Assembly (NCBI GenBank): GCA_021413585.1
Contig: JAIOQB010000356.1
Span: 1 to 53,516, forward strand
Length of the DNA: 53,516 bases
Direction: 5' to 3'
DNA from: Planctomycetia bacterium
Lineage (GTDB): Bacteria > Planctomycetota > Planctomycetia > Pirellulales > UBA7805
Shown here in pieces: positions 18,636-31,959 of the stretch (positions are counted from its first letter, which is position 1; every line of letters starts with the position of its first letter). The notes beneath the pieces are model-generated. The model made no database searches. It was not told the origin of the DNA and saw only the letters and a list, made by a program, of their open reading frames with translations. Made by a program: the position numbers and the translations under genes.

Positions 18636-19014
18636 GCGCAGTGAAGCCCGCCGTAGGTTGCGCCTGCCGGGCGGTACCTGAATTGCAAGTTGACGTGCAA
18701 ACAACTCGCTGCGCGACCCCCGGGCGGAGCCCGGGGCTATTGACGGCGTTCCCAGCCCCCCAATCGCCAACGTCCTTTCGGAATGGGACGGTTTTACCGC
18801 GCCGCGGCCCGCTGTTTACCCCAAATTGACGCCGAATACGGTCCGCCGCGGCTTCGGCCAGTTTGACAGCCGCGACCCGTTCGGTAAGAATTGAACATAG
18901 CAGTCATCGCGAGGATTGCAGACCCGGGCGGCCTGACCCGGCGGGGTGGTGTTCCCGCCGGCGATACATGTGGACGTACCGAAGTTTCCCGCGATGACCG
19001 AAGCGACGTTGGCA

Positions 19015-19167
19015 ATGACATCGCTGTTCGCTTTCGACATAAATTCGCTGCACATGGCGATCCTGGCAGCGATCGTCGTTCTTTTGTTTGGCACTCGTTT
19101 GCCCAGCGTCATGCGCTCGTTGGGAAATGGATTTCGGGGCGGTCCCCCCGGTGCCCCACTCGCATAA
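19015..19167 (+). CDS. Short TatA-like paralog, C-terminally truncated
   Basis: IVVLLFGTRLPSVMRSLG, nearly identical to the 5' half of the next gene. Confidence 0.5.
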   Translation: MTSLFAFDINSLHMAILAAIVVLLFGTRLPSVMRSLGNGFRGGPPGAPLA

Positions 19168-19188
19168 TTAACCAGAGCGAGGTTTACT

Positions 19189-19446
19189 ATGGCTCCACTA
19201 TTTGCGTTTGACTTGAACCCCCTGCACTTGATGATCCTGGCAGCGATCGTCTTCCTGCTCTTCGGCAACCGTTTGCCCAGTGCCATGCGGTCGCTGGGCC
19301 GCGGCGTGGTCGAGTTCAAGAAGGGAATGCAGGGAATTGACGACGACGAGACGGGCACGGGCACCAAGCCGGCCGTCGAGCATCGCGACGCAGAACCGCG
19401 CCGCGAGCCCGAAACGGTTGAAAAGAAGCCGAACACAACCGGCTGA
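19189..19446 (+). CDS. tatA: Twin-arginine translocase subunit TatA/TatE
   Basis: FLLFGNRLPSAMRSLGRGVVEFKKG. Confidence 0.88.
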   Translation: MAPLFAFDLNPLHLMILAAIVFLLFGNRLPSAMRSLGRGVVEFKKGMQGIDDDETGTGTKPAVEHRDAEPRREPETVEKKPNTTG

Positions 19447-19988: not shown

Positions 19989-20062
19989 GGGCGTTTAGCT
20001 CAGTTGGTTAGAGCGCCTTCCTCACACGGAGGAGGTCACAGGTTCGAGTCCTGTAACGCCCA
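19989..20062 (+). tRNA. tRNA-Val(CAC), integration target
   Basis: GGGCGTT/AACGCCC acceptor stem, TAGCTCAGTTGGTTAGAGC D-arm, CCTTC-CTCACAC-GGAGG anticodon arm, GGTTCGAGTCC T-loop; CCA not encoded. Confidence 0.95.
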
Positions 20063-21353
20063 TCGACATATGTACACTACGTGGTACTGTGTTGCTTTCA
20101 GCGGCTTTTTTGATGGTTGGCCCGGTCGCTTGTGACTCGGGGCAACCGTCTGCCGCGCTATGGTGTGCGCTGGGGTGTGCGCTTTTTCCGGCGCCCTGGT
20201 CGAAGTGGTCTTCGGTCACTTGCAGGTAGTGCTTCTTCGCCACGGCCATGCTGTTGCCGATCCACTTGCACACCACGTGAATCGGGAACGTCTCGGCCAG
20301 TTCCGTCTCGCGTGTGCTCCGCAGGTTTTGAAACAGTTTCGGCCAGACCGCCAGCCCGGCCTTGGTGATGATCTTCTGGAGCGTGGTCCGAAGATTCTGC
20401 CCAGCGTCACGGTAGCGTGTAATGACGTGCTGGGCGTCCCTCGGGGCAATCTGCCGGGCATCCTCCAGGTACGGCAGCAATTCAGGGAACAACGGCACCA
20501 CGCGGGATTCGCCCCCTTCGTGGTGTTCGGTCTTGGGGCTCCGCACGGTCATTCTGCCGGCAGCCCAGTTGATATCCTCCCATCGCAAGGCTAGATGCTC
20601 AGACGGGCACCGCAGGCCGCCGTAGCGGCTCAGGGCGAAGATCAGCCGCCATTCGGCGTCGGGGCACTTGTCGATGATCTTCGTAGCCGCTTCGGTGGTC
20701 ACAAAGTGATCGCGGCTCCGGTTGCTGCCGACGGCGCCGCTCAGGTCTTCAAACGGGTTGACGTGAATCAGCCCCTTCCGCATAGCTGCCTTAAAGAATT
20801 GCTTCGCGTTGCTGATCCGCTTGCGGACGGTGTTTGCCGCCAGCCCCGGAGGCTCCGCGGTCGGGTCTTTTTTCTTGGCCGCCTTGCTCCGCCGTGGATC
20901 CTTGGCCACGGTGGTCAAGTAGATGCGAAACCCATCGGCATCCCCGGGCGTGATATCCCGCAGCGGCTTGTCGGCGCCAAAGTGTTCCACGAGGTTTCGC
21001 CGGGTGTGCCCCCAGTTGGTCACCGTGGCTTGCTTCACGTCGGCCCGGGCCGCAATGTACCCCAGGACGAATGGCCCCAGCGTGCGGGCTCCCTTGCCCC
21101 CCGGCGCCGCAATCAACCCCGCCTTGGCCAGCCGCGCGGCCATCTTGGGTTTCAACCCCTTGAGCCATGCGGCCAATCCGGGATCGACGTCACGATTCAG
21201 TAGCCGGGCCTGTAGCAGCCCCTCGACACGGAGCTTGATATCCTGCGCCGATCGCTCAGTCACCTTGCCGAGCCATACGGTCTTGCGCTTCCCCTCTTCA
21301 TCGACGAATAAGATTCGCCGTCGTCCTTTTTGGTCGGTTCCGATACTTGCCAT
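20022..21353 (-). CDS. Tyrosine recombinase/phage integrase (443 aa; 3' end overlaps the tRNA antisense)
   Basis: SAM-like domain (KPLRDITPGDADGF), RYGGLRCPSE, SPKT, FQNLRST, WIGNS, KHYLQV. Confidence 0.92.
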   Translation of the reverse strand: MASIGTDQKGRRRILFVDEEGKRKTVWLGKVTERSAQDIKLRVEGLLQARLLNRDVDPGLAAWLKGLKPKMAARLAKAGLIAAPGGKGARTLGPFVLGYIAARADVKQATVTNWGHTRRNLVEHFGADKPLRDITPGDADGFRIYLTTVAKDPRRSKAAKKKDPTAEPPGLAANTVRKRISNAKQFFKAAMRKGLIHVNPFEDLSGAVGSNRSRDHFVTTEAATKIIDKCPDAEWRLIFALSRYGGLRCPSEHLALRWEDINWAAGRMTVRSPKTEHHEGGESRVVPLFPELLPYLEDARQIAPRDAQHVITRYRDAGQNLRTTLQKIITKAGLAVWPKLFQNLRSTRETELAETFPIHVVCKWIGNSMAVAKKHYLQVTEDHFDQGAGKSAHPSAHHSAADGCPESQATGPTIKKAAESNTVPRSVHMSMGVTGLEPVTSSV

Positions 21354-21536
21354 TTTGCTCACCTGCTTTCGTGTTAGAGTAAAAAATGCGGTTAGCCGGC
21401 GGGACGGACAATGCACGTCGCATTGTGATACCACTCCAGTTACCAGCCGCCGTCCCGTCGGCCCCGTCAACGCTTCCGCTGCCAGGGGCAATTTCCCAAC
21501 AGGCAGCATCATCGTCGACGCTCCGCATGGACGGCC

Positions 21537-21953
21537 TCACGCCCCGTCGTAAAACGCCATCACCATATCGGCCGCGATGCCTTGAATGTCGCGTTCTGGC
21601 CCCTCAGGGTCATAGTCCTTGTCGTGGCGGGGCGCGTCGTCAAGGTTGCACAACTTGCCCTTGATCTCGAACTCCCCCTCGAACTCCCGGGTATCACCAA
21701 TCTGGCGCACGTGAACTTTCAATTCAGTTGCCCCGGACCAAATCCGCTGGAGCTTGCGCGCGTTGCGCTCCAGGTGTTCCAGCGTATCGCCGACGCCTTC
21801 AAAGCCGGCGGCTTTCAGTGCAGCATCGCGGTTCTCGATAATCTTGGCGCAAATAGCGGCAGACTCCTTAGGCGTCCGCTTGCGCTGCCCCATCCCCTTG
21901 AACTCAGGCAGCTTTTCAAGCTGGCGAATGGCTTGGGCGAGTTCGTCCCTCAT
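21537..21953 (-). CDS. Hypothetical protein of the element
   Basis: 138-aa ORF, ATGA-coupled to the upstream ORF. Confidence 0.6.
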   Translation of the reverse strand: MRDELAQAIRQLEKLPEFKGMGQRKRTPKESAAICAKIIENRDAALKAAGFEGVGDTLEHLERNARKLQRIWSGATELKVHVRQIGDTREFEGEFEIKGKLCNLDDAPRHDKDYDPEGPERDIQGIAADMVMAFYDGA

Positions 21954-22174
21954 ACGGCACCGCCGATCCAGGCCGCCGCATCAGCATCGGTCAAATCGAG
22001 AATGCGCTCGTTACCGTGGCAGAGCGCGTCGCCCTCTTTGCGGACCAGCCGGTCGATGGCTTTGCCCTGTTGCTCCCGCTCAATTGCCTGCCAGCGCTTG
22101 AGCGATGCGCGGGCTAACAACTCAGGTCCGCTCGACATTCGCGCGCGGGGTCGCTTCGACACAATCCTTGACAT
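21950..22174 (-). CDS. Small hypothetical protein
   Basis: AAAGGA SD; coupled to the downstream ORF. Confidence 0.5.
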   Translation of the reverse strand: MSRIVSKRPRARMSSGPELLARASLKRWQAIEREQQGKAIDRLVRKEGDALCHGNERILDLTDADAAAWIGGAV

Positions 22175-22343
22175 GGGGAATCCTTTCGGCGCCGGCAGCC
22201 TGCCGGTCGCACCTTAGAATGAGTCCTGGCCCGCAACGGCCCTGCTAGGTGGTGCTTAGGCCACCATGGGGATCGTTGCCTACTCCCGAACCGCCACGGG
22301 CCAGGGCTCTTGATACTAAGCATGAGAATTTAGCAACCGCCGG

Positions 22344-22583
22344 TTATTGGCCGGGCGGTCTAAGCAAAGGGTTTAGCGTCACCAATTTTGCACACTCCCC
22401 AAGTGTCGTCAACCCTGTTTTTTCCACGTCCCCCAGGTCATGCGCGCTGCCGATCGTGCAACAGGCGCAATCGTATAGCTGCCGTTCTGGCAGTTTGTCC
22501 CCAATTGTGGACGTTTCGCCCTTCCGCCGCTCCGCGATGGCTTTCGCCCGCTTGAATGCGGCCGCCGTGCAATAGGGTTTCAT
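22344..22583 (-). CDS. Small hypothetical protein
   Basis: Start overlaps the stop of the tape-measure-like gene (ATGA). Confidence 0.35.
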   Translation of the reverse strand: MKPYCTAAAFKRAKAIAERRKGETSTIGDKLPERQLYDCACCTIGSAHDLGDVEKTGLTTLGECAKLVTLNPLLRPPGQ

Positions 22584-24127
22584 GCGATGCCGCCATCGGG
22601 CTGGAAGCGGGCCACGGTGTCCACTTTCTTAATCGAGGCGTCGATAGCTTCTAATTGCCTGCCCTGCCGAAGCGCTTCCTTCAGGTGTTCTTCCGCAGTT
22701 TCCTTTTGCCCAGACCTTAGTGCAGCCGCTTGAATCTGCTCGGCGAGTCCGGCAAGGCCCATGCGTTGGCTGTGGACTTCGGAATCGTGATTCATCAAGT
22801 CGAAGTGCAACACGCCCGCCTTGTGTCTGTCGGCTTCTTCTTTGGCGGCCCGCTCATCTTCGTGGATCGCCTTTAGCGATTCGTCGGCCTCTCGGAGAAA
22901 CATCTTGTCTTCCGCGATCTGTGCGCGCAGATTCCAATTTTTATTTAGAGCGTCATACTCTTCCTTCATTTGTTGCCCGGTCAAGTTCTCGATCTTTTCG
23001 ATGTGGGCCTCCCACGCGGCGAAAGCCTTTTCCCGCTCCGCTTCGACCACTTCGATATCGTTTCCTTCCAGCTTGGCGCGTTCCAGCGCCATATCGCGCA
23101 GCCGCTGATTGTGGTCGCGTTCGATATCCTCTTCCGCCTTGACCTGCTCTTCGTTGGCGGCAATGGCGGCTTGCGATTCGTTCGCCATGCTCAGGTAGCG
23201 GGCCTTCTCCGCTTTGATATCCCCCAGCTCTTTGTACGTGGCCTCCGTCTGCGCGCGGGCCTTGGCGGCATACTTGGCGCTGGCAGGGTTTTCGTCAGGC
23301 GTGTTCGCGCGGATATCCACGTCGGCCGCGTCGAGCGTCAACAGTTTGCCGAGTGCTGCCAGATCAAACTTGCCATCCTCATGGCCGGGCCCCGCCGCCT
23401 TCGCCCAGAACTTCACAATTTCGACCGTCGCGTCGGCGGTGCTTTCCTTGATGTTCTTCATCACCATCGGAATGCCGTGGGCCATCTCCTCTGCGGCGCC
23501 TTTGTAGCGATCCATCAGCTTTTCGAGGATTACGGTTTGGGCCGCGTGGGCATCGCCGCTGCGCTGCAGAACTTCGATTTCCTCTTTCTCTTCTTCCATC
23601 AGCGTGATGCCGACGCCGCGCAGCAGCTTGGCGGCGTGTTCGGGGTCGTTCAATGCCTTACCGAGCATCCGCGCGGCTTCCGGCAAGTCGGTTCCCATCA
23701 CTGTCGCCAGGTCGGCCGACAGTTTGAGCGTTTCGCGGAATGTGTCCCCCTTGATGTTCGTAAACGGCGCCATCACCGCCGCCGCGGCATACGCCTGCTC
23801 TTTGGTGAACATCGTCGCCTCGGCCAACTCGTCGGCCATGGCCCGCACTTGCCCGGCGGTATATCCGGCGGCATCGCCGCTGGCATGAATCGCCGCGTTC
23901 AGCCGATTGACGGACTTTTCCCGCTCTTCAAAGGTCTCATACAACTTCTTGATTCCCTCAACGCCCAAATAGCCGCCGAAAACGGCCTCCATCCTCTTGT
24001 GCATTTTTTCGGCCGCTTCCGCTGCGCTGCCGAACCGTTTGGAAATTGCGTCCAAGTCCCCTTCGACCTTTTGCCGGCCGCGGGTTTCGAGTTGGATGTA
24101 GCCTGTTTCGAGGGGTGTGTCGCCCAT
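22580..24127 (-). CDS. Phage tail tape-measure-like protein (lambda gpH N-terminal type), 515 aa
   Basis: LNAAIHASGDAAGYTAGQVRAMADEL...FTNIKG...DLATVMGTDL..AARMLGKALNDP....LRGVGI...AQTVILEKL...YKGAAE, followed by coiled coil. Confidence 0.8.
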   Translation of the reverse strand: MGDTPLETGYIQLETRGRQKVEGDLDAISKRFGSAAEAAEKMHKRMEAVFGGYLGVEGIKKLYETFEEREKSVNRLNAAIHASGDAAGYTAGQVRAMADELAEATMFTKEQAYAAAAVMAPFTNIKGDTFRETLKLSADLATVMGTDLPEAARMLGKALNDPEHAAKLLRGVGITLMEEEKEEIEVLQRSGDAHAAQTVILEKLMDRYKGAAEEMAHGIPMVMKNIKESTADATVEIVKFWAKAAGPGHEDGKFDLAALGKLLTLDAADVDIRANTPDENPASAKYAAKARAQTEATYKELGDIKAEKARYLSMANESQAAIAANEEQVKAEEDIERDHNQRLRDMALERAKLEGNDIEVVEAEREKAFAAWEAHIEKIENLTGQQMKEEYDALNKNWNLRAQIAEDKMFLREADESLKAIHEDERAAKEEADRHKAGVLHFDLMNHDSEVHSQRMGLAGLAEQIQAAALRSGQKETAEEHLKEALRQGRQLEAIDASIKKVDTVARFQPDGGIA

Positions 24128-24134
24128 GATGGCC

Positions 24135-24377
24135 TCAGTTGTGGGGGGAGTTGTTCAGCCGCTGAATGACCGCGCGAACGGTTTGAAGATTGCGCCGGAA
24201 TGTGGCCAGCTTCTCTTGAATGGCCAGCGCGTGGGCGGGGTCCGTGTCGATGGCATTGACCAATTCGACCATGGCCCGCTCTGTTGCTTCCATGCTGGCC
24301 AGGATAGCGGCCAGGTCTGCGCCCGGGCGTAGCATCGTCACGGCCTCGGGGACCATGCTGGGCTTGAACTTGGTCAT
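24135..24377 (-). CDS. Small helical hypothetical protein
   Basis: AAAGGA SD; 80 aa; directly upstream of the tape-measure-like gene. Confidence 0.55.
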   Translation of the reverse strand: MTKFKPSMVPEAVTMLRPGADLAAILASMEATERAMVELVNAIDTDPAHALAIQEKLATFRRNLQTVRAVIQRLNNSPHN

Positions 24378-24480
24378 AATGAATCCTTTGAAAAAACGGC
24401 CGGCCGCGAGGAAAGTTCAAAACCCCGCGACCGGCCGCCAGACACGACGCGGGAGGAGAAACACCCGCGCCAAATGCTTA

Positions 24481-25131
24481 TCACCATTCCGCCATTTGCT
24501 GATGCAGTTCATTGTGCCGGCGCGACTTGGCGGCCTGTTCCGCTTGAATTTGCGAATGCCGTTCCCGCGTGGCATCCAAATAAGTCTGGCAGCCCTCGCG
24601 GTCCGCGGGATCGCAACCTTGCAAATTGTTTAGCGCGCGGTCCACCGCGTCTTGCGCGTCGCGGATGGCCGGGTAAAGGGCCATAATTTCAGAGTCCAGC
24701 GCGCGGAAGTCGCGCTGCAGTGCCGTGTTCGGGCAGCTTCGCGCCAAGTCGGCGTCGATGGTCGCGATTTTGGCAATCGTCAGATTTAATTCCGCCAGTT
24801 CCAATTGAATGGCCCCCGCGGTGCGGCGGTGTTCGGCAACCGCAGCGTCGAGCTTGTCGTTGGCGGTGTCCAACTCGCGTTGCTGCGCGTCGCGTCGAGC
24901 TTCGAGCGTTTGCTTTTGGGCCGCTTGCTCGCGGAGCTTGGCGCGATACTTGAGATTGGCAACCAGGTCGTCCAGTTGCGGCGGCAGTTTGCCGGCATCC
25001 CGCAAAATGTCGGCAATCGCGGTGCTGCCGACTTGCTCGCCCATCGCGATGCGGCGAGCCAGCGTCATAAACGAGTCGCCCCGCTCGGTCAAAATCTCCC
25101 CGGCCTCTTGTACGTCAGTCTTCGCTACCAT
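24481..25131 (-). CDS. Coiled-coil hypothetical protein
   Basis: 216-aa ORF rich in A/Q/L/E/R heptads; GAGGAG upstream. Confidence 0.65.
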   Translation of the reverse strand: MVAKTDVQEAGEILTERGDSFMTLARRIAMGEQVGSTAIADILRDAGKLPPQLDDLVANLKYRAKLREQAAQKQTLEARRDAQQRELDTANDKLDAAVAEHRRTAGAIQLELAELNLTIAKIATIDADLARSCPNTALQRDFRALDSEIMALYPAIRDAQDAVDRALNNLQGCDPADREGCQTYLDATRERHSQIQAEQAAKSRRHNELHQQMAEW

Positions 25132-25450
25132 AGCTTTCGCGCTCCTCTTTTAGTTGTGCAAACATTGCCCGCGATTCGGCCATCGCTGCAGCGCGATGGA
25201 TTCGCAGCACGTCTTCGGTCAAATCTTCTTCGTCGCGTTCGACGGACGCCAGAATCTCCGTCATGTTTTCATTCGTGAAAGTTTCGGCGCCATCATCAGC
25301 CGCAATCTCTTCGACGAGCGCGGCATACAGTTCCTGATGGTCTTCCAATTCCGTCTCTGCTCCGCAGCCACCGCGGATAATGTCGCAATCTTTTTTCATT
25401 TCGCTGCGCCATCCGTCAACCGCCGCCGCAAAAATCTCTGGGCTTTTCAT
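25115..25450 (-). CDS. Acidic hypothetical protein
   Basis: ATGA-coupled to the upstream gene; D/E-rich. Confidence 0.55.
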   Translation of the reverse strand: MKSPEIFAAAVDGWRSEMKKDCDIIRGGCGAETELEDHQELYAALVEEIAADDGAETFTNENMTEILASVERDEEDLTEDVLRIHRAAAMAESRAMFAQLKEERESYGSED

Positions 25451-26127
25451 ACCGTTGCTCCGTTGGTGTATCGCGCCACGTCGGCCGCCCACAGGTCGGC
25501 AAACGCTTGGGGCACGGGGGTTGCTTCAATTTCCGCGAACGTGCTGCCCATCAGTCGCTGCGGTTCGTCGTCTAATGCTGCGGCATATTTCAACAAATGG
25601 GAAAGTCCATACCGCTCGCCCGCCGCGCAGCCGCCGGCCAGGAACTTGAAGTCGTGTTCCCAGGCGCGATGGCAGACGTGAATAAAAATCCTGATGAACC
25701 TGTCGCCGTGGTCACTGTGCCAGGGCTCGGGCCCGTCCGCAAACCTGTCGGCAGGCAATTCGGCCCACAGGATCGAATAGCGCTGTCCGTTTCTCACGGC
25801 CGCCGCCGAACTCTCGGGTTCGGCAATGGGCCGCGCAGGCAGGCAATGGGTCAACTCGTGCGCGAACGTCGCCAGCGGGTCGATGCACTCGCGCAACAGC
25901 CTGTCGAGTTGCAACACGATCGCCGGCGCCGGGCCGCGCCAAGCTCCGCGCGATTCCAAGTGCGCCTTGGTAAACGGTTCGACGTGCTGCGGAGTTGCCC
26001 AGGCCGTGCTATGCGATGGCGCCGGCATCCCATCCGGCGGCGCGCCGAGAATGTAGAGCGTCGGCAGTTCCGGCGCAACCGCGGCGGCCAGTCTGTGACA
26101 CTCAGCGATGATGGTTTCGCGTTCCAT
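25447..26127 (-). CDS. Putative zincin metallopeptidase (HExxH; SprT/ImmA-like)
   Basis: TFAHELTHCL plus downstream WHSDHGDRF. Confidence 0.55.
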   Translation of the reverse strand: MERETIIAECHRLAAAVAPELPTLYILGAPPDGMPAPSHSTAWATPQHVEPFTKAHLESRGAWRGPAPAIVLQLDRLLRECIDPLATFAHELTHCLPARPIAEPESSAAAVRNGQRYSILWAELPADRFADGPEPWHSDHGDRFIRIFIHVCHRAWEHDFKFLAGGCAAGERYGLSHLLKYAAALDDEPQRLMGSTFAEIEATPVPQAFADLWAADVARYTNGATV

Positions 26128-26137
26128 GATGGTAATG

Positions 26138-26362
26138 CTACACATTGGGTTCTGAGCTATTGCCAGTCGCTGGCAATTCGATAATCCGCAAGTGCCGGCA
26201 GGAACATTCCCGGCAGATGCACTTCTGGGTTGTGGATCCATCGCTACCGTTGTTTTCGCTGCGGATGATGATGGGTTTGCGGTCGGTGTCGCAATGCGGG
26301 CAGCGCACCGGCGGCTGCCGCTGAATGAACAACATCGGGGCGGCTTCCCAATTTTCACGCAT
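26138..26362 (-). CDS. Small C4 zinc-ribbon protein (Ogr/Delta-like architecture)
   Basis: CPHC...CRECS. Confidence 0.5.
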   Translation of the reverse strand: MRENWEAAPMLFIQRQPPVRCPHCDTDRKPIIIRSENNGSDGSTTQKCICRECSCRHLRIIELPATGNSSEPNV

Positions 26363-26711
26363 CAGGCACCCCCTTGAGCCGGGCCCGCCCGGCATCAGTT
26401 ACCCGAATACGCCGATTGAATCGCTCGACCAGCCCGTCGACCTCCAGCCCCTTGATGGCCTGCTGGCAGCGGATGCGCTCGCTCGGCGTTGGCCAGTAAC
26501 CCAGGAACTTCGGGATGTCATAGATCGCACCAAACAGCCGCGTGTCCTGAATCTCTTGACGTAGGTAGCCAGTGAGCGGGTTGCGGGCAGCAACCTCTCG
26601 GGCCAACTCGGCGCGAAGCTCCAGACGGGCGGCAACCGTGGCTTTCCTGATGCCGGCCAGCAGCTTGGTGGCGTCGATGTGGATGGTTTTGGGACGGCCC
26701 ATGATGGTCAC
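26355..26711 (-). CDS. Hypothetical protein, possible winged-helix C-terminus
   Basis: MGRPK start; AIKGLEVDGLVER...IRVTDAGR. Confidence 0.55.
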   Translation of the reverse strand: MTIMGRPKTIHIDATKLLAGIRKATVAARLELRAELAREVAARNPLTGYLRQEIQDTRLFGAIYDIPKFLGYWPTPSERIRCQQAIKGLEVDGLVERFNRRIRVTDAGRARLKGVPDA

Positions 26712-26907
26712 TCGGGTTTATTTGTTCGCGGACGGACTAATCCATATCTGCGCGGGATGGGGGTGGTGAACCTCGCCTGTCGCTTTTCCCCCAAGGACCC
26801 GCGTTTTTTATAGGCCCACCCACGCCCCGCCTGTGCGTCATCGTCAACCGTACAACTCTGCACTCCGCAAGCGTGATCGTGTGTCTAATGCGGTCCTGTG
26901 CGAGCCA

Positions 26908-28389
26908 TCAGAACTCCCCGTTCCTGTCGCCGTAGTCGTCTGACTCTGTATCTTGAACGTCTTGAGCGCCTAATACCCCATACAACTTGGTAGGTATGTT
27001 TATTCCCGAAGATTCTTCAACACTCTCAAGACGCTCAAGACGCTCAAGTTCTTTTAGTCGCTCAACCGTGAACGCCTTCCCCGGCGCCTGCAAAAACCAT
27101 GGGCCGGGGCAAATTGGGCGAATGGCTTTCACCCCCAATTGCTTCCGCGCCCTTCGGAGCGTGGATAGCGATATGGCCATCGCCTTGGCCTCTGCCTCAA
27201 CGTCCTTTGTCGGGGTCGGGCCATCAGCGAGCCGCTGCTGAAGGAACTCCACCGCCTCGCGCTGGGCATCAGCCCCGGGGCCAGGGCGTGCGGCTGCTTG
27301 CTCCGCCGCCAGGGAGTCGTCTGCCGACATATCCACCGCCTCACGCTCCCAATGGACGCTGGCCGGTTCGCCGGCAATGGTGAACGCCAGCCCGGTCCCC
27401 TCGGCCGCCAGATTGTTTTTGCCGGGCAGCATCAATCGGCGTTGCTTCTCTTTTGGATCGCGGCTGACGTGCCAGACGGCGCGGGCGATGCCGGTGAAAG
27501 CGCGGCTGCCGAGTGCCAGGTCGTCCGCGGTGGCACCTTGGGCCTTGCGTCGATGTGCGACCACGACAACAGCCGGGCCATACTTTTCCGCCAGCTTGGC
27601 GATGGGGGCCAGCACGGCCCGGACTTCGTTGTCCCGGTGGGCATCCGTCTTGCCGCCGAGAAAGCTGCCGATGGGATCCACCACCACTAGCCGGCAATCG
27701 GGCAGAGTCTTTAGCGTTGCCTCAATCGCGTCCACGTCGGCAAGGCTAATCAGCCGCTCATATTCGCCCTCGACGCCAAGCCCGCGCACTGCGGACAGTA
27801 GGTGTACCTTGCTGCAATCGGCGCGGTGGGCATCAAGTCGCGGCCGGATCGTGTCGCCGGGATCGTCTTCCGCCGTCAACAGCAGCACAGAGCCCTTTTC
27901 ACATTTTGCGCCGTCTGGGAATGGCGTTCCCGTGCTGGTGTTGGCCGCCATGTAGACGGTAGCGAACGACTTCCCCTCGCCGGGACGCCCAACGAACAAC
28001 GTGATTCGACCGGCAGGGATTCGGCCCTCCCAATACCACTTGATTTCCTTCGGTTCAACGTCTGCCATGCAAATCACTACTGGCGTTTGCAGTGGAGCGG
28101 AATCAGCCCGCGCGTCTTCCGCATCGGCCTTGGCGATTAGTTCGCCTTCAATGAACTCGTGAGCGTCTTCGCCGAGCCCAAACCGCTCGATAACCCGGTC
28201 GCGGAACTTCGCTCGCATCCACGCCGCGGAAGTATCGAGCTTGTCCCGGTACTCCGTGCCGTTGCGTTGCGCGATGGCCAGCCGCTTTCCATCGCGATCA
28301 ACTGGGCCGACGTGGATGGCCAGCGGTCCTAATCCGCCGTCGTGATAATTCCAGCGTGCTTGGTCTTCAGGGGTGGCAATTTGCGTCAT
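26908..28389 (-). CDS. AAA_25/RepA-like SF4 helicase (replication protein)
   Basis: WYWEGRIPAG, GRPGEGKS (Walker A), LTAED, LVVVDP (Walker B), VAHRRK, GSRAF, KNNL; C-terminal winged-helix-like segment. Confidence 0.85.
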   Translation of the reverse strand: MTQIATPEDQARWNYHDGGLGPLAIHVGPVDRDGKRLAIAQRNGTEYRDKLDTSAAWMRAKFRDRVIERFGLGEDAHEFIEGELIAKADAEDARADSAPLQTPVVICMADVEPKEIKWYWEGRIPAGRITLFVGRPGEGKSFATVYMAANTSTGTPFPDGAKCEKGSVLLLTAEDDPGDTIRPRLDAHRADCSKVHLLSAVRGLGVEGEYERLISLADVDAIEATLKTLPDCRLVVVDPIGSFLGGKTDAHRDNEVRAVLAPIAKLAEKYGPAVVVVAHRRKAQGATADDLALGSRAFTGIARAVWHVSRDPKEKQRRLMLPGKNNLAAEGTGLAFTIAGEPASVHWEREAVDMSADDSLAAEQAAARPGPGADAQREAVEFLQQRLADGPTPTKDVEAEAKAMAISLSTLRRARKQLGVKAIRPICPGPWFLQAPGKAFTVERLKELERLERLESVEESSGINIPTKLYGVLGAQDVQDTESDDYGDRNGEF

Positions 28390-28688
28390 CGGTTCCCCCG
28401 TGCGCGGATGATGGCCGCCGGTGGCGCCGCGCTGGTTGCTGGCCGATGGGTCGTCACTGGCCGATAGATGGGCGTCTCGGCGCCAATCGTCGCCGCCCGC
28501 ACCATATCGTGAGTCTCCTGCAGTCGGCGTATCTCGACCGGCAGGTCCATTAGCACGTCCAGGGCCTCTAGCTCCTGTCGGAGTGTGCCAAGTCGTGGCA
28601 CTTCGGCCAGCACGTCGGCGTGGTATCCCCTCGATTGCGCGGCCGCGCGAACGGCTCGTTCTCTGCGGCGGGATCGGATATAATCCAT
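28386..28688 (-). CDS. Hypothetical protein
   Basis: GGGAG SD; coupled to the helicase start. Confidence 0.5.
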   Translation of the reverse strand: MDYIRSRRRERAVRAAAQSRGYHADVLAEVPRLGTLRQELEALDVLMDLPVEIRRLQETHDMVRAATIGAETPIYRPVTTHRPATSAAPPAAIIRARGNR

Positions 28689-28741
28689 TTCAGTTCTCCC
28701 GCCCGGGTTCGGCCTGCCAGCCACCGGGCATTTTTATTGGG

Positions 28742-28927
28742 TTAGCGGGCCGTGGCGGTTTCACGCTCGGCGAGATACTGCTGGATGGCCTCTGGCCTGA
28801 ACAACAGGCGGCGCCCCAGGCGGACGCAAGGGAATCGGCCGGCCTTGGCCTCACGGCGAAGCCACGATGCACTAACGCGAACCTCTTCGGCGGCTTCGGT
28901 GACGTTCAACGCTAATCTGGTCGTCAT
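28742..28927 (-). CDS. Excisionase/AlpA-like HTH protein (HTH_17)
   Basis: LALNVTEAAEEVRVSASWLRREAKAGRFPCVRLGRRLLFRPEAIQQYL; GGAG SD. Confidence 0.85.
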   Translation of the reverse strand: MTTRLALNVTEAAEEVRVSASWLRREAKAGRFPCVRLGRRLLFRPEAIQQYLAERETATAR

Positions 28928-29015
28928 TTGATTTCTCCGGCTATGTGGTGCCGCCCCGTGCGGCTGACTTGAGAAACGATAGCCACATTCGCGCGGCGAG
29001 AAAAATGCGCGCAGA

Positions 29016-29089
29016 AAAACGCCCGAGCGCTTTTTAGAAAAACACTCGGGCGTTTTGAAAAGTTGGAAAGAAAAGCGCTCGAGCGTTTT
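29016..29089. promoter_or_regulatory. Three imperfect palindromes (putative operators) upstream of the xis-like gene
   Basis: aaaacgcccgagcgctttt, aaaacactcgggcgtttt, aaaagcgctcgagcgtttt. Confidence 0.5.
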
Positions 29090-29090
29090 A

Positions 29091-29780
29091 TCAGCGGCCG
29101 CGGAGCCGTTTATTCAGAGTAGGCACTGAAACACTGTGCTGTTTGGCGAGCTTTTCAATAGCCTTGGCTCGCGTGCGATTGCCCGTCGTCAACGCAACTA
29201 ATTCGGCGTTCAGGGTATCGGCTGACACATCCTTCAATTTCCTTGTGCCACTGCCGCCTTTCGATGCGTTTCGCTTATTTCCGAACTTCGCGCCGTGCTT
29301 CGCGGCGTTTCGCAAAAGCGATCGCTGGTAGGCCATCCCAGCGCGAAAGGCATAATCTATCGTGGATCGTATGTCCGGCGGTCCCGAGAATGTAGCCCAA
29401 TGCTCTGCTGAATTGCCGTCATCGTTTTCCCAACCAATTAGAATCTGGCCGTGGTATTCAATGCCCAGGCAGTTTTCCCAAATCGTTTGGGCATCGCCTT
29501 GAATTGAATCCGCAACACTGGATCCACGAGGTGGAAACTCTATGACTTTTTTTCTTGCCTCGCGAAGCAACTGCAGTGTTTGCGGCGGATAGCTTTCAGG
29601 CGGGCGGCCCCGCAAGTTGGCCGTGTTTTCGTCTACTTCATAGACGGCTGGTTTTTCTCTGCTCTTTTTGAGAATCGCCAGCGCTGGCGATATCGCATTA
29701 ACCTGCCCGGCTACCGAACCGGCTGAAAACACCTGCCCGATAACGCTACCAGCCTTAGCTTTCGCTTTCTTCTTCGCCAT
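29091..29780 (-). CDS. Hypothetical regulator with C-terminal HTH-like segment
   Basis: MAKKK start with CAGGTGAGC RBS; C-terminal RAKAIEKLAKQHSVSVPTLNKRL. Confidence 0.55.
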   Translation of the reverse strand: MAKKKAKAKAGSVIGQVFSAGSVAGQVNAISPALAILKKSREKPAVYEVDENTANLRGRPPESYPPQTLQLLREARKKVIEFPPRGSSVADSIQGDAQTIWENCLGIEYHGQILIGWENDDGNSAEHWATFSGPPDIRSTIDYAFRAGMAYQRSLLRNAAKHGAKFGNKRNASKGGSGTRKLKDVSADTLNAELVALTTGNRTRAKAIEKLAKQHSVSVPTLNKRLRGR

Positions 29781-29799
29781 GATGCTCACCTGTGGTTGA

Positions 29800-29873
29800 G
29801 CCGAGCCGGCCGGCCATCGTCCCGCAGGTGAGCGCCCGGGAACGATGGCCAGCCGTGTGCAGGGAGCTACCCC
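29800..29873 (-). ncRNA. Putative structured regulatory RNA with anti-RBS loop
   Basis: Stem 29807-29823/29838-29855; loop GCUCACCUGC; 5' GGGUAGCUCCC. Confidence 0.45.
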
Positions 29874-30096
29874 GCGACCCGATGCGTGCATTCTAACGGG
29901 CTTTGACCTTCGTGGGAGTCGCCTGGACGGCCGCCAGCAGCCGGGCCCGGGCCGCGGGCGTCAACGAGGATAGGGCCTCGACCAGCCCCGCGATATCGTC
30001 ATCCGGTGCCCCGTGTGCGCCATAGTGTGCGCTAACTGGCAAAATCCCGGTTTCATCCGGTGAATGTGGACCCTGTTCGAGTCCTGTAACGCCCAT

Positions 30097-30280
30097 TGGC
30101 TCCAAGTTTTCAGCGAGAAATCCGCATAATTCTAGGAGTTGTAGGGTTCCATTCTCCTTCAGTTCGTCCCGCTCCGGGGTAGTCTGCACCACATTTGGTG
30201 CAGTTTCGCCCGCCACGAGCCCAGACGCTTTGGCGAAGTGTGGGCTCCGCACGGTCATTCTGCCGGCCGCCCAGTTGACC
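30097..30280 (-). pseudogene. Internally deleted integrase remnant of a second element
   Basis: About 30242-30279 matches about 20536-20572 almost exactly (NWAAGRMTVRSP) and is fused directly to an HFAKA.. tail. Confidence 0.7.
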
Positions 30281-30327
30281 GCCACCGCATCCTGATTACC
30301 TCGAATCCCCTCCGGCAGGCTGGCGAT

Positions 30328-30450
30328 CAATGGCACTTACTTTGTGGAAAAATCACGTAGTCTCACGAAATGCTAGCTGCGGATTCTTGGGGAATTTGCA
30401 GCTAGCAATTTCACATTGGGCTTCATTCAAACGTAAAGTAAGTGCCATTG
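30328..30450. mobile_element. 123-bp MITE (IS4-like ends)
   Basis: 16-bp perfect TIR CAATGGCACTTACTTT/AAAGTAAGTGCCATTG; 10-bp target duplication GGCTGGCGAT at 30318-30327 and 30451-30460. Confidence 0.85.
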
Positions 30451-30847
30451 GGCTGGCGATGGCGGCGTCCATCCCGCTCTTGACGAGCAAGACCAACAGG
30501 CCGAGCCCTGAACCGGTTACCCGTGCGACATGAGCGGTGGGGATATTGAGCCACGAAAGGTAGGCCGCTTGGGAATATGGAATGTTCGACGCGGCCCAGA
30601 TCCTTGTACTTTGCGTCAATTGCTGTGCTTGCACCCATTTGGTCGATGGCCTAGGTAGATGATTGCACCGAGGCCAAATTGGTGAGGAGGCATAGTAGAT
30701 GTTTTATCGAGCATTGGGTTGAGACGACCAACCCTGTCAATTCGCATTAGGGGGCGTGCTATCGCCACTTCGCCTTCGGTGTGCGGACCGGCTGCCTGAC
30801 AATGTCGATTTGTCAGCACATACTCTCCACCTGCTGTGAAGTCGAGG

Positions 30848-30950
30848 CTTTGCCTCGCACCGCATCGCCCCGCTCAGCGGAGCAACGCGGCGTAACGCTC
30901 TGCACCACTACGCAGCGCGACGCTATGCTTCACAACGCAACGCAACGAAG
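30848..30950. repeat. Degenerate pentamer (NNCGC/CGCAA) tandem array followed by a hairpin
   Basis: ...cctcgcaccgcatcgccccgc...caacgcaacgcaacg; hairpin gcggctacc/ggtagccgc plus T-run at ~30952-30987. Confidence 0.55.
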
Positions 30951-31440
30951 TGCGGCTACCCTTTGCGGTAGCCGCCCACTTTTTTTGCGACGGTCTCCAT
31001 GTGCATACGCGCCCTCACGTTCCCCCTCGAAGATTCACTCCCAAACCTGTGTCGGTATCGGGTGATCTACGGCTATTAGGTAAACAAGCAGGAGCAAGCC
31101 ACCAAGACGGTGCTGGAGCAGGCCGAGCTGCTCTGTGAATCCTGGATTCCTGGTCAGCCCAGTGAGTCCCACCGCAAGTCCATAATGCGGCAATCGTTGA
31201 ACAAACGGTCCATTTCTGAGAAAAGTCATAAAACGGTAGCGTTGCTGGGGAGCGTGCCAAGATTACTTACTAATGGAGCAGGCAATAGGGCCGCCTCGGA
31301 CTTCTCGTCAATGCCCGCGACGGCCCAGCCAATGTTCCCCCCCCCCGGCATGGCCGGCACGAAGCTCACTAATCTCGGATTTTCCAAGCAGTGACTCCTG
31401 TTTTCCTCTCACCGATCGTTTTCACATCCTGCATCAAGCA

Positions 31441-31959
31441 TCACTTCTGGCGCAGCTGCCGGTCATAGGTCCGTTGGCGAAGCTCCTTCATCAAGGCCAA
31501 CTGGGCGGCGTTGGAAACTTGGGTGTGTTTGAGATCCACCACTTCAAGTTCGGGCAGCGCGCGAATCGTTTCCAAACTCGCATCGGTAATCTGGACATCG
31601 ACCAGCAACAGGCTCCGCAAGTGCGTCGCCTTTTTAAGCGGCGCGAGGCCAGCGTCCGTGATCTTGGTATACGACAGATCGACGGAGCGGAGCTGCTCGG
31701 GCAGCGGCACATTCGCCAAGTCTGCATCCGTGATGGAAGATTTCGCCAGGTCGAGCGTCAAGGAGGCGTGCCCGCCGAACCGCTGCACACGATCGTCGTA
31801 GCCACGCAGACTCGTTTCCAGTGCGACACTGGACTCTTCATGGCTCCCAGCAAGGGTCGTCGAACCGCGGGCCCCCCGGCCGCAACCGGCGAGCCAGGGC
31901 AAAAAGCATACGACGATCACCAGCCCGCAGGGCCAGCGAGGGACTTGAGTGGATGCCAT
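31441..31959 (-). CDS. Leucine-rich-repeat lipoprotein
   Basis: LAGC lipobox; LDLAKSSITDADL, VDLSYTKITDAGL, LVDVQITDASL; AAGGAG SD. Confidence 0.8.
   Translation of the reverse strand: MASTQVPRWPCGLVIVVCFLPWLAGCGRGARGSTTLAGSHEESSVALETSLRGYDDRVQRFGGHASLTLDLAKSSITDADLANVPLPEQLRSVDLSYTKITDAGLAPLKKATHLRSLLLVDVQITDASLETIRALPELEVVDLKHTQVSNAAQLALMKELRQRTYDRQLRQK

Follow-up and report, generated by a model that had tools for sequence, protein, structure and literature searches.

What kind of mobile element keeps one gene related to a phage tail and none for the rest of the virion? The question is raised by a 10,055-bp island in contig JAIOQB010000356.1 (GenBank assembly GCA_021413585.1) of a freshwater planctomycete of the order Pirellulales; the whole stretch analysed, 53,516 nt, is called the window below. 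The island lies between two copies of an attachment (att) sequence at a tRNA-Val gene, and encodes a 515-aa protein whose front part is related to tape-measure proteins (TMPs). An earlier account based on the letters and open reading frames (ORFs) of this DNA, here the sequence-only reading, had described it as a satellite-like element that may alter the tail assembly of a helper phage. We find an intact element, one of a family of 5-10 kb islands, widespread in Planctomycetota, that target tRNA genes and look replication-competent. The ground plan of the family is a small integrase-excisionase-helicase (int-xis-helicase) island, with variable cargo in two places, the helicase-integrase interval and the region upstream of the helicase. 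As to the cargo of the window copy, the reading that we prefer, a satellite-like island whose TMP-like product is directed at siphovirus tails, has in our estimate a probability of roughly 40% as a whole.

A family of small integrase-helicase islands

A search of species-representative genomes with the island helicase gave 67 loci, almost all of them in metagenome-assembled genomes (MAGs) of Planctomycetota (Phycisphaerales, Planctomycetaceae, Pirellulales, Tepidisphaerales). When the 17 island ORFs were compared with these loci by tblastn, the helicase was matched in 67/67, the integrase in 21/67, the excisionase in 5/67, and each other ORF in 0/67. The distance from the helicase match to the start of the integrase is 0.04-1 kb in 17 loci and 1.9-2.8 kb in two; in two further loci the integrase match lies upstream or on the other strand. 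An opposite-strand tRNA or tmRNA gene follows the integrase in 19 of the 22 loci scanned, and exact tRNA-end repeats delimit nine relatives of 5,218-10,126 bp, the smallest being 5.2-5.6 kb (the 16-nt repeat of locus L008, inside the tRNA body, is possibly due to chance, and L008 was excluded from the analysis of circular forms). The window shows the same arrangement, a helicase homologue followed by a related tyrosine integrase beside a tRNA gene, the two genes being 5.3 kb apart. Some of the relatives have longer helicases, at least one of which carries a primase zinc ribbon as a fusion. As cargo the relatives bear, among others, MmeI-type restriction-modification genes (L033, L036, L058), the type II toxin-antitoxin pair Phd/ParE (L019), a Y-family (IMS) polymerase (L058) and a GYF-domain protein, which suggests that the family serves to carry defence and stress genes. 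No morphogenesis genes were found in the relatives. The search for elements of about 10 kb with integrase, AAA_25 helicase and TMP that the sequence-only reading had proposed brought out the integrase-AAA_25 islands, but a TMP in none of 70 loci.

The window copy is bounded by an exact 22-nt direct repeat, GTTCGAGTCCTGTAACGCCCAT, at 20042-20063 and 30075-30096; its left copy consists of the last 21 bases of tRNA-Val(cac) plus one and thus overlaps the 3' end of the sole tRNA gene of the window (19989-20062; ARAGORN, Rfam tRNA 71.1 bits). No third copy with up to three mismatches exists in the window, and none is expected (0 in 100 shuffles). Every plausible gene between the repeats is on the minus strand. 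By their coordinates, four pairs of neighbours overlap by 4 nt (o112 and helicase, o51 and o118, the TMP-like gene and o79, o74 and o138), and o80 ends 7 nt before the TMP-like gene. The features are as follows.

19989-20062, plus strand: tRNA-Val(cac), the integration target
20042-20063: attL core, 22-nt exact repeat
20022-21512, minus strand: tyrosine integrase (Phage_integrase 2.4e-8; Phage_int_SAM_5 2.5e-7; phrog_1 1.1e-31)
21537-21953, minus strand: o138, ORFan with a sole relative, a 77% paralogue on contig C491 of its own genome
21950-22174, minus strand: o74, small ORF without family match
22114-22323: alternative 69-aa ORF overlapping o74
22344-22583, minus strand: o79, small ORF with a weak match on contig C281 of its own genome
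22580-24127, minus strand: TMP-like protein, 515 aa (PF06791 6.6e-12; phrog_27166 2.5e-21)
24135-24377, minus strand: o80, small, possibly helical ORF
24481-25131, minus strand: o216, coiled-coil ORFan with weak SMC-like matches only
25115-25492, minus strand: o125, acidic ORFan without family match
25447-26124, minus strand: zincin-like HExxH protein, 225 aa (frame open up to 26358; H90, E91 and H140 invariant)
26138-26395, minus strand: possible Cys-rich zinc-ribbon ORF, 85 aa, between o118 and the zincin-like gene (phrog_1305 E 9.6e-4)
26355-26711, minus strand: o118 (HemN_C E 0.007, below cut-off)
26708-26863, minus strand: o51, small ORF
26908-28389, minus strand: AAA_25 (RepA/DnaB-like) replicative helicase, the family marker (Pfam 1.2e-34; PHROG primase/helicase families)
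28386-28724, minus strand: o112
28742-28927, minus strand: HTH_17 excisionase/AlpA-like protein, 61 aa (Pfam 2e-11; TIGR01764 1.3e-7; phrog_1840 6.7e-9)
29091-29891, minus strand: o266, ORFan with likely start at 29780 (229 aa)
29893-30074, minus strand: conserved integrase C-terminal tail, in frame with the att core and joined to the integrase only in the excised circle
30075-30096: attR core, the junction bridged by an independent Logan contig (26177-30357)
30097-30336, minus strand: older integrase remnant, recognised by translation and by a 37-nt repeat 97% identical to the integrase interior

Among the 17 island ORFs, Pfam, PHROGs and NCBIfam gave no match to capsid, portal, terminase, tail-tube or chaperone families. 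The sequence-only reading had the element right in these respects, an island of about 10 kb bounded by att repeats, of which the window has just the two copies, and free of capsid, portal, terminase and tail-tube genes. The gene order that it had likened to that of phage-inducible chromosomal islands (PICIs) stands for the excisionase/AlpA-like gene, the helicase and the integrase, all matched to families, but not for the 266-aa gene placed at the head of the order as a helix-turn-helix (HTH) gene, for which no HTH family scored significantly (HTH_10 E 0.089, below the cut-off).

A tape-measure domain outside a tail module

The 515-aa protein matches PF06791 (TMP_2) with 46.0 bits over aa 31-169, against a curated cut-off of 30.2 bits, and aligns collinearly by BLASTP with a prophage TMP of the same phylum at 36% identity over aa 21-226 (E 6e-29). 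Its layout is an N-terminal TMP_2-type domain of about 225 aa followed by a charged coiled coil of about 290 aa without homologues, the content of D, E, K and R being 32% overall. The gene has a G+C content at third codon positions (GC3) of 0.73, similar to its neighbours, and is tightly coupled with o80 and o79. It is therefore an intact gene, with a conserved N-terminal TMP domain placed on a novel rear half. As the sequence-only reading had it, this is the only virion-related gene found in the island, but the homology to TMPs is limited to aa ~21-226, and the product is not a standard tape measure.

Twenty-five other proteins match it among 5.8 billion searched, over 26-49% of the query and at 25-40% identity. 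Their lengths range from 443 to 894 aa, with 23 of the 25 exceeding 515 aa and the two others at 443-445 aa. Hydrophobic or membrane-active segments are common, though not universal, in the body of tape measures; the maximum of the Kyte-Doolittle profile reaches at least 1.6 in 19 of 26 homologues and 1.42-1.53 in the other seven. IMG/VR gave no match to the TMP-like protein.

The homologues in the phylum stand in a different setting. Among the 20 genomes of the bacterial family, only the same-genus genome G004 has one, in a canonical tail module (adaptor, head closure, neck, terminator, major tail, chaperone, tail protein, TMP). Three of 400 other genomes of the phylum have one, in frames of 581-709 aa that adjoin terminase, portal and major head genes. 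The other homologues examined thus lie in head-tail modules in 4/4 cases, and the window copy, shorter than all four of these prophage TMPs, is the exception: no neighbour matches tail families or any of the four prophage modules. When all island ORFs were compared with these modules by phmmer, only the TMP was matched; therefore, the cargo does not represent a stretch of tail module taken up in one piece. Within the island family, a hidden Markov model (HMM) of the domain built from 27 sequences had no match in a six-frame translation of the 67 loci and three IMG/VR loci (1.17 Mb) except the window (1e-63).

The integrase gene spans attP

The integrase ORF continues across attL and ends within the tRNA gene, and the same overlap is seen in the relatives. 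Its most likely start is 21353 (M54), judging from where tblastn alignments begin. When we modelled the excised circle for the window and the eight other att-bounded relatives (L006, L011, L019, L022, L033, L036, L050, L058), the integrase ORF became 50-64 aa longer in 9/9. In the integrated island, these extra residues come from the far end, next to attR (29893-30074 in the window), and form a conserved peptide (GGAESGA ... DPEL..IV.AWP.LP..VR..ILAMV; ~45-60 aa). An HMM of this tail found it in 17 of the 67 loci (8 of the training set and 9 new), in every case upstream of the helicase gene and on its strand. The integrase gene of the family thus spans attP, with the core inside its coding sequence.

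Integrases that extend across attP have been described for Mx8 and SSV, and in Mx8 the exchange of the 3' end of int modifies the behaviour of the integrase (PMC4383910, PMC6070905). The likeness lies in an int ORF that runs through the att core, so that integration swaps its 3' end. The difference is that the swapped tail is here conserved across a family of small islands using many different tRNA genes. As a trait of the whole family, the tail peptide makes a handy marker of island ends. The family, with its tRNA islands of 5-10 kb, attP-split integrase and conserved tail peptide, does not depend on how the TMP-like gene is understood, and its description should be useful for the annotation of planctomycete genomes and the delimitation of islands.

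Other genes of the cargo block

The TMP-like gene belongs to a 5.3-kb block (21537-26863) that sits between helicase and integrase and is unique to the window copy. The model of o138 (AlphaFold2), from an alignment of two sequences, the protein itself and its paralogue being all that was found, was unusable (mean pLDDT 44.9). In the Protein Atlas, o216 had no usable match and o138 a single lead at 0.75, below the useful range; o216 has two weak coiled-coil matches among the 400 other genomes of the phylum.

The zincin-like ORF most likely starts at 26124, where its homologues begin, which would make the protein 225 aa long rather than 303. Seven database members make up its family, joined by a paralogue that lies in another island of this genome (contig C281). 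The AlphaFold2 model has a pLDDT of 87.7; a Foldseek search of PDB gave nothing at E <= 0.001, and an exhaustive structural aligner placed SPRTN, Wss1, YbeY-type proteins and BepA at the top with weak scores (Z 5.0-5.9). The assignment rests mainly on the invariant H-E...H residues, and the weak structural ranking agrees with the HExxH motif. This protein is not a virion protein.

The 85-aa ORF at 26138-26395 has the pattern CxxC ... CxCxxCxC, a layout that we take to be like that of Ogr/Delta-type zinc fingers; Pfam gave no Ogr_Delta match and nothing else above cut-off, and the sole match was to phrog_1305 ("DNA binding protein"). The C-terminus of o118, read by eye, faintly resembles a winged helix. 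Upstream of the helicase, o266 retrieved only itself and one weak repeat protein from 1.84 billion representatives (HMMER).

The ORF o80 occupies the position usual for a tail assembly chaperone (TAC), upstream of the TMP-like gene. Neither it nor the ORFans o216 and o125 matched a TAC family in Pfam, PHROGs or NCBIfam, or a TAC of the four prophage modules, and a comparison of frames by hand brought out no convincing chaperone-type programmed frameshift among o216, o80 and the TMP-like gene. Since the largest ORF of unassigned product in the island has 266 aa, all of these are too short for a terminase large subunit or a portal protein. A match of the 61-aa HTH_17 protein to the small-terminase (terS) family phrog_57 (E 4.6e-4) spans the HTH only.

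Comparison with known satellites

P4 is defined by Psu, Sid, Delta/Ogr and the alpha primase-helicase (D5_N), and PICIs by int, a regulator or AlpA, pri-rep, and a packaging or capsid-redirection module (terS, ppi/rpp, cpm). The island fits neither gene list: Psu, Sid, Delta/Ogr and D5_N/primase alpha gave no Pfam or PHROG match in the island at E <= 0.01-1, and the terS, Ppi/Rpp and Cpm families none in Pfam, PHROGs or NCBIfam. The island shares with P4 and PICIs an integrase, an AlpA-like gene and a replicative helicase, an att site at a tRNA gene or another specific locus, and cargo hot spots with defence genes; it differs in that all its genes are co-directional. Judged by what is common to satellites in general, it has genes for excision and replication, att sites, and no full set of virion genes.

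The closest parallel to the core is offered by the PICMIs (minimalist chromosomal islands that are phage-inducible) of Vibrionaceae, in which a core of int, alpA and primase, about 6 kb, suffices for a satellite (PMC10803314). Like them, our island combines a minimal set of int, AlpA/Xis-like HTH gene and replication gene with the absence of capsid-remodelling genes, and belongs with elements that are small (5.2-5.6 kb in the smallest relatives) and carry one or two accessory or defence genes. Unlike them, it has an AAA_25 helicase in place of the primase, a length of 10 kb, and another integration site and phylum, and satellite behaviour is demonstrated for PICMIs only. No primase was recognised in the window copy. 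The island is analogous to PICMIs and not a member of the class.

The TMP-like gene has its parallel in the PICI-like elements (PLEs) of Vibrio cholerae, which are reported to encode a TMP, a TAC and sometimes a hub protein and to build chimeric, slightly shorter tails; the same report mentions an 80-aa protein of PLE11, Rta, that blocks the helper TMP, and putative tmp genes in PLE-like elements and capsid-forming PICIs (PMC12987554). Both are chromosomal islands that encode a TMP-like protein without capsid, tube or sheath genes. Otherwise, the differences are many: the island genes have no sequence relationship to those of PLEs, no TAC or hub was recognised, and integrase type, replication gene, host phylum and presumed helper (a siphovirus versus the contractile-tailed ICP1) are not the same. 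Moreover, our protein is TMP-like in its N-terminal third only, and the island is known from its sequence alone. The equal size of Rta and of o80 next to the TMP-like gene (80 aa) is coincidental and not evidence. The EPIP satellites of Mycolicibacterium also carry a TMP, and their tails are longer and variable in length (PMC12822802, a preprint). The likeness is to a satellite class noted for a TMP and altered tail lengths; EPIPs additionally have genes for a small terminase, adaptor, stopper and scaffold, others related to the capsid, and a serine integrase, and our island showed none of these. Furthermore, Tai inhibitors of tail assembly occupy cargo slots of PICIs and P4, downstream of pri (PMC11364771).

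Satellite-encoded tape measures are therefore already published, and the premise of the sequence-only reading, that satellites act mostly on capsids or packaging, is outdated. The island resembles PICMIs in its core and PLEs in its TMP-derived gene, and is a sequence relative of neither. Our literature search found no paper pairing planctomycetes with phage satellites, or with satellites and PICI.

Resident elements and traces of mobility

The genome of the window is a MAG of 523 contigs, 93.7% complete. On its contig C64 (204-7775; locus L077), a terminase large subunit of 509 aa (phrog_9 9.3e-27) lies near a D5-type primase (789 aa), and the end of the contig holds a 324-aa ORF with weak matches to tape-measure PHROGs. 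This is a phage-like fragment, and the sole candidate trace of a helper.

A second island lies on contig C281 (~23800-31800; locus L004 6819-14768). It contains a P4-type integrase (Arm-DNA-bind_3), a ParB-like gene, a D5_N/DUF5906 helicase, a terS-like gene (phrog_57, 4.7e-8) and the paralogue of the zincin-like protein (35%), and looks closer to a classical satellite than the island studied here.

In G004, a sister species, the syntenic tRNA-Val(cac) site is occupied by a different island (contig C196; locus L091 3478-15274) with a closely related integrase (E 6.9e-129), a Xis-like gene, a ParB-HTH-like gene and a 728-aa fusion of reverse transcriptase and RNase H; helicase, TMP and att repeat were not found before the contig ends.

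In one run, X1, which is probably that of the source sample, Logan contigs contain the integrated attR junction, and neither an attP junction nor an empty attB. One X1 contig matches the window as far as 20063, the end of the tRNA and att core, and then continues with unrelated sequence; it may come from another strain or organism in which the site is differently occupied or empty. The depth in X1 is ~41 in the tRNA bin and ~8 inside the island.

What the tape-measure-like gene may do

Islands with genes for excision and replication, and without genes for capsids, packaging or conjugation, most likely move as hitchers of phages, in the manner of PICMIs or P4; the spread of this one would need a helper, most plausibly a phage. 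Its TMP-like protein, in turn, would most likely enter the assembly of siphovirus tails, those of a helper or of a competitor, through its N-terminal domain and as a mimic of the tape measure. A satellite that remodels tails seems a reasonable idea with published precedent. Granted that the protein acts on tails, we lean slightly towards interference or the assembly of altered tails, as neither hydrophobic nor tip-proximal parts are present and no chaperone was recognised; a full substitute tape measure, as in PLEs, would be nearly as probable. In its boldest and most specific form the proposal is that of a first satellite lineage of Planctomycetota, an int-xis-helicase hitcher whose integrase is completed only in the circle and which is armed with a truncated tape-measure mimic, poisoning siphovirus tails through the N-terminal domain or making shortened chimeric tails without a chaperone of its own; taken with all these particulars, it is unlikely.

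Several results weigh against a tail-directed satellite. The TMP cargo is a singleton (0/70 related loci), which limits what can be concluded from it: no comparative signal ties this cargo to the life cycle of the island. No close homologue of the protein exists among the 5.8 billion proteins, no TMP aligns with it beyond residue ~226 in pairwise comparison, and it lacks a hydrophobic segment (maximum 0.98 over 19 residues on the Kyte-Doolittle scale). The island contains no recognised terS, cos/pac, capsid-redirection or TAC gene, and PADLOC gave two marginal matches, to the helicase and the HTH protein, and none to the cargo. IMG/VR has no close relatives of the helicase, only three loci at 29-32% identity. 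In its own genome, Phage_capsid, Terminase_6N and Phage_portal have no match, TerL_ATPase has the single one on C64, and tail genes of the G004 prophage type were not found; no helper phage can be named.

Much of this would suit another account, in which the TMP-derived gene has no role in tails, being a passenger or an exapted coiled-coil protein acquired by illegitimate recombination with a phage, and in which the island, if it still moves, spreads in ways unconnected with phage tails, for example through mobilisation by some other element, or is inherited only vertically. The cargo is not only a singleton, it consists almost entirely of ORFans; the homology to TMPs breaks off at residue ~226, no TAC, hub or tube partner accompanies it, the cargo of the relatives is generic (restriction-modification, toxin-antitoxin, polymerase), and neither an excised form nor an empty site was seen in the one run. 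Against this account, the ORF is long, intact, translationally coupled to its neighbours and host-like in composition (GC3 0.73), and the part retained is precisely the most conserved domain of TMPs (33-40% identity). We consider this account doubtful, although it is the one to be taken most seriously among the alternatives. The cargo block could also be debris that came from another mobile element into the helicase-integrase slot by recombination, now decaying and without joint expression of its genes. It is unique among the 67 relatives, an older integrase remnant adjoins attR, and the relatives of the zincin-like gene and of o79 in the C281 island, together with the o138 paralogue elsewhere, point to exchanges between the resident elements. 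The block, however, shows neither frameshifts nor truncated genes, all ORFs are on one strand with 4-nt overlaps, and the att sites are identical, so that this reading seems distinctly improbable.

Two further explanations can be largely set aside. The first is that the island is a prophage stripped of its head and tail genes by deletion, with the tape-measure gene left; in its favour, the TMP homologues elsewhere are found in full morphogenesis modules. Yet none of the 67 helicase relatives is a prophage: they are small int-helicase islands without morphogenesis genes, in which the integrase follows the helicase (5.2-10.1 kb), and no other island ORF matches the four prophage modules or is long enough for a terminase or portal. 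Since the ground plan of the family is itself a small int-xis-helicase island, descent from a prophage by deletion is refuted, bar a negligible chance, and the sequence-only reading was right to argue against it. The call of the TMP itself might be a false positive due to coiled-coil or low-complexity similarity, given that the rear half is a charged coiled coil and that a match to phrog_24 (aa 70-493, E 3.4e-10) may be partly compositional. The Pfam score well above its cut-off, the collinear alignment with conserved motifs over aa 21-226, and the domain HMM that recognises this protein and nothing else in 1.17 Mb make such an error very improbable.

If the island is a satellite, satellite biology extends to a phylum in which none has been described. 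It would then also be a third independent case of a satellite with tape-measure-derived genes, after PLEs and EPIPs, and, as a case reduced to the N-terminal domain, it would indicate which portion of the tape measure counts when tail assembly is hijacked or blocked.

Surroundings of the island

On both sides, the window consists of ordinary planctomycete chromosome (ExbB/ExbD, TPR, TatA, PEP-CTERM, ECF sigma/FecR). An Rfam scan of the window returned the tRNA only, and scans for promoters and terminators gave counts not above those of shuffled sequences. Directly outside attR lies the remnant of an older, related integrase (30097-30336, minus strand), in which 37 nt at 30242-30278 are 97% identical to the interior of the present integrase (20536-20572); the tRNA-Val site has therefore been used before. 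For ~1.8 kb beyond it, perhaps to ~31970, the G+C content is lower (0.56-0.58) and the ORFs have no family match; this zone is probably what is left, after decay, of an element that occupied the site before. On the other side, upstream of the tRNA, a 128-nt direct repeat (two copies of 73% identity with a spacing of 174 nt) is present at 18997-19298, within or beside an ORF at 18816-19436.

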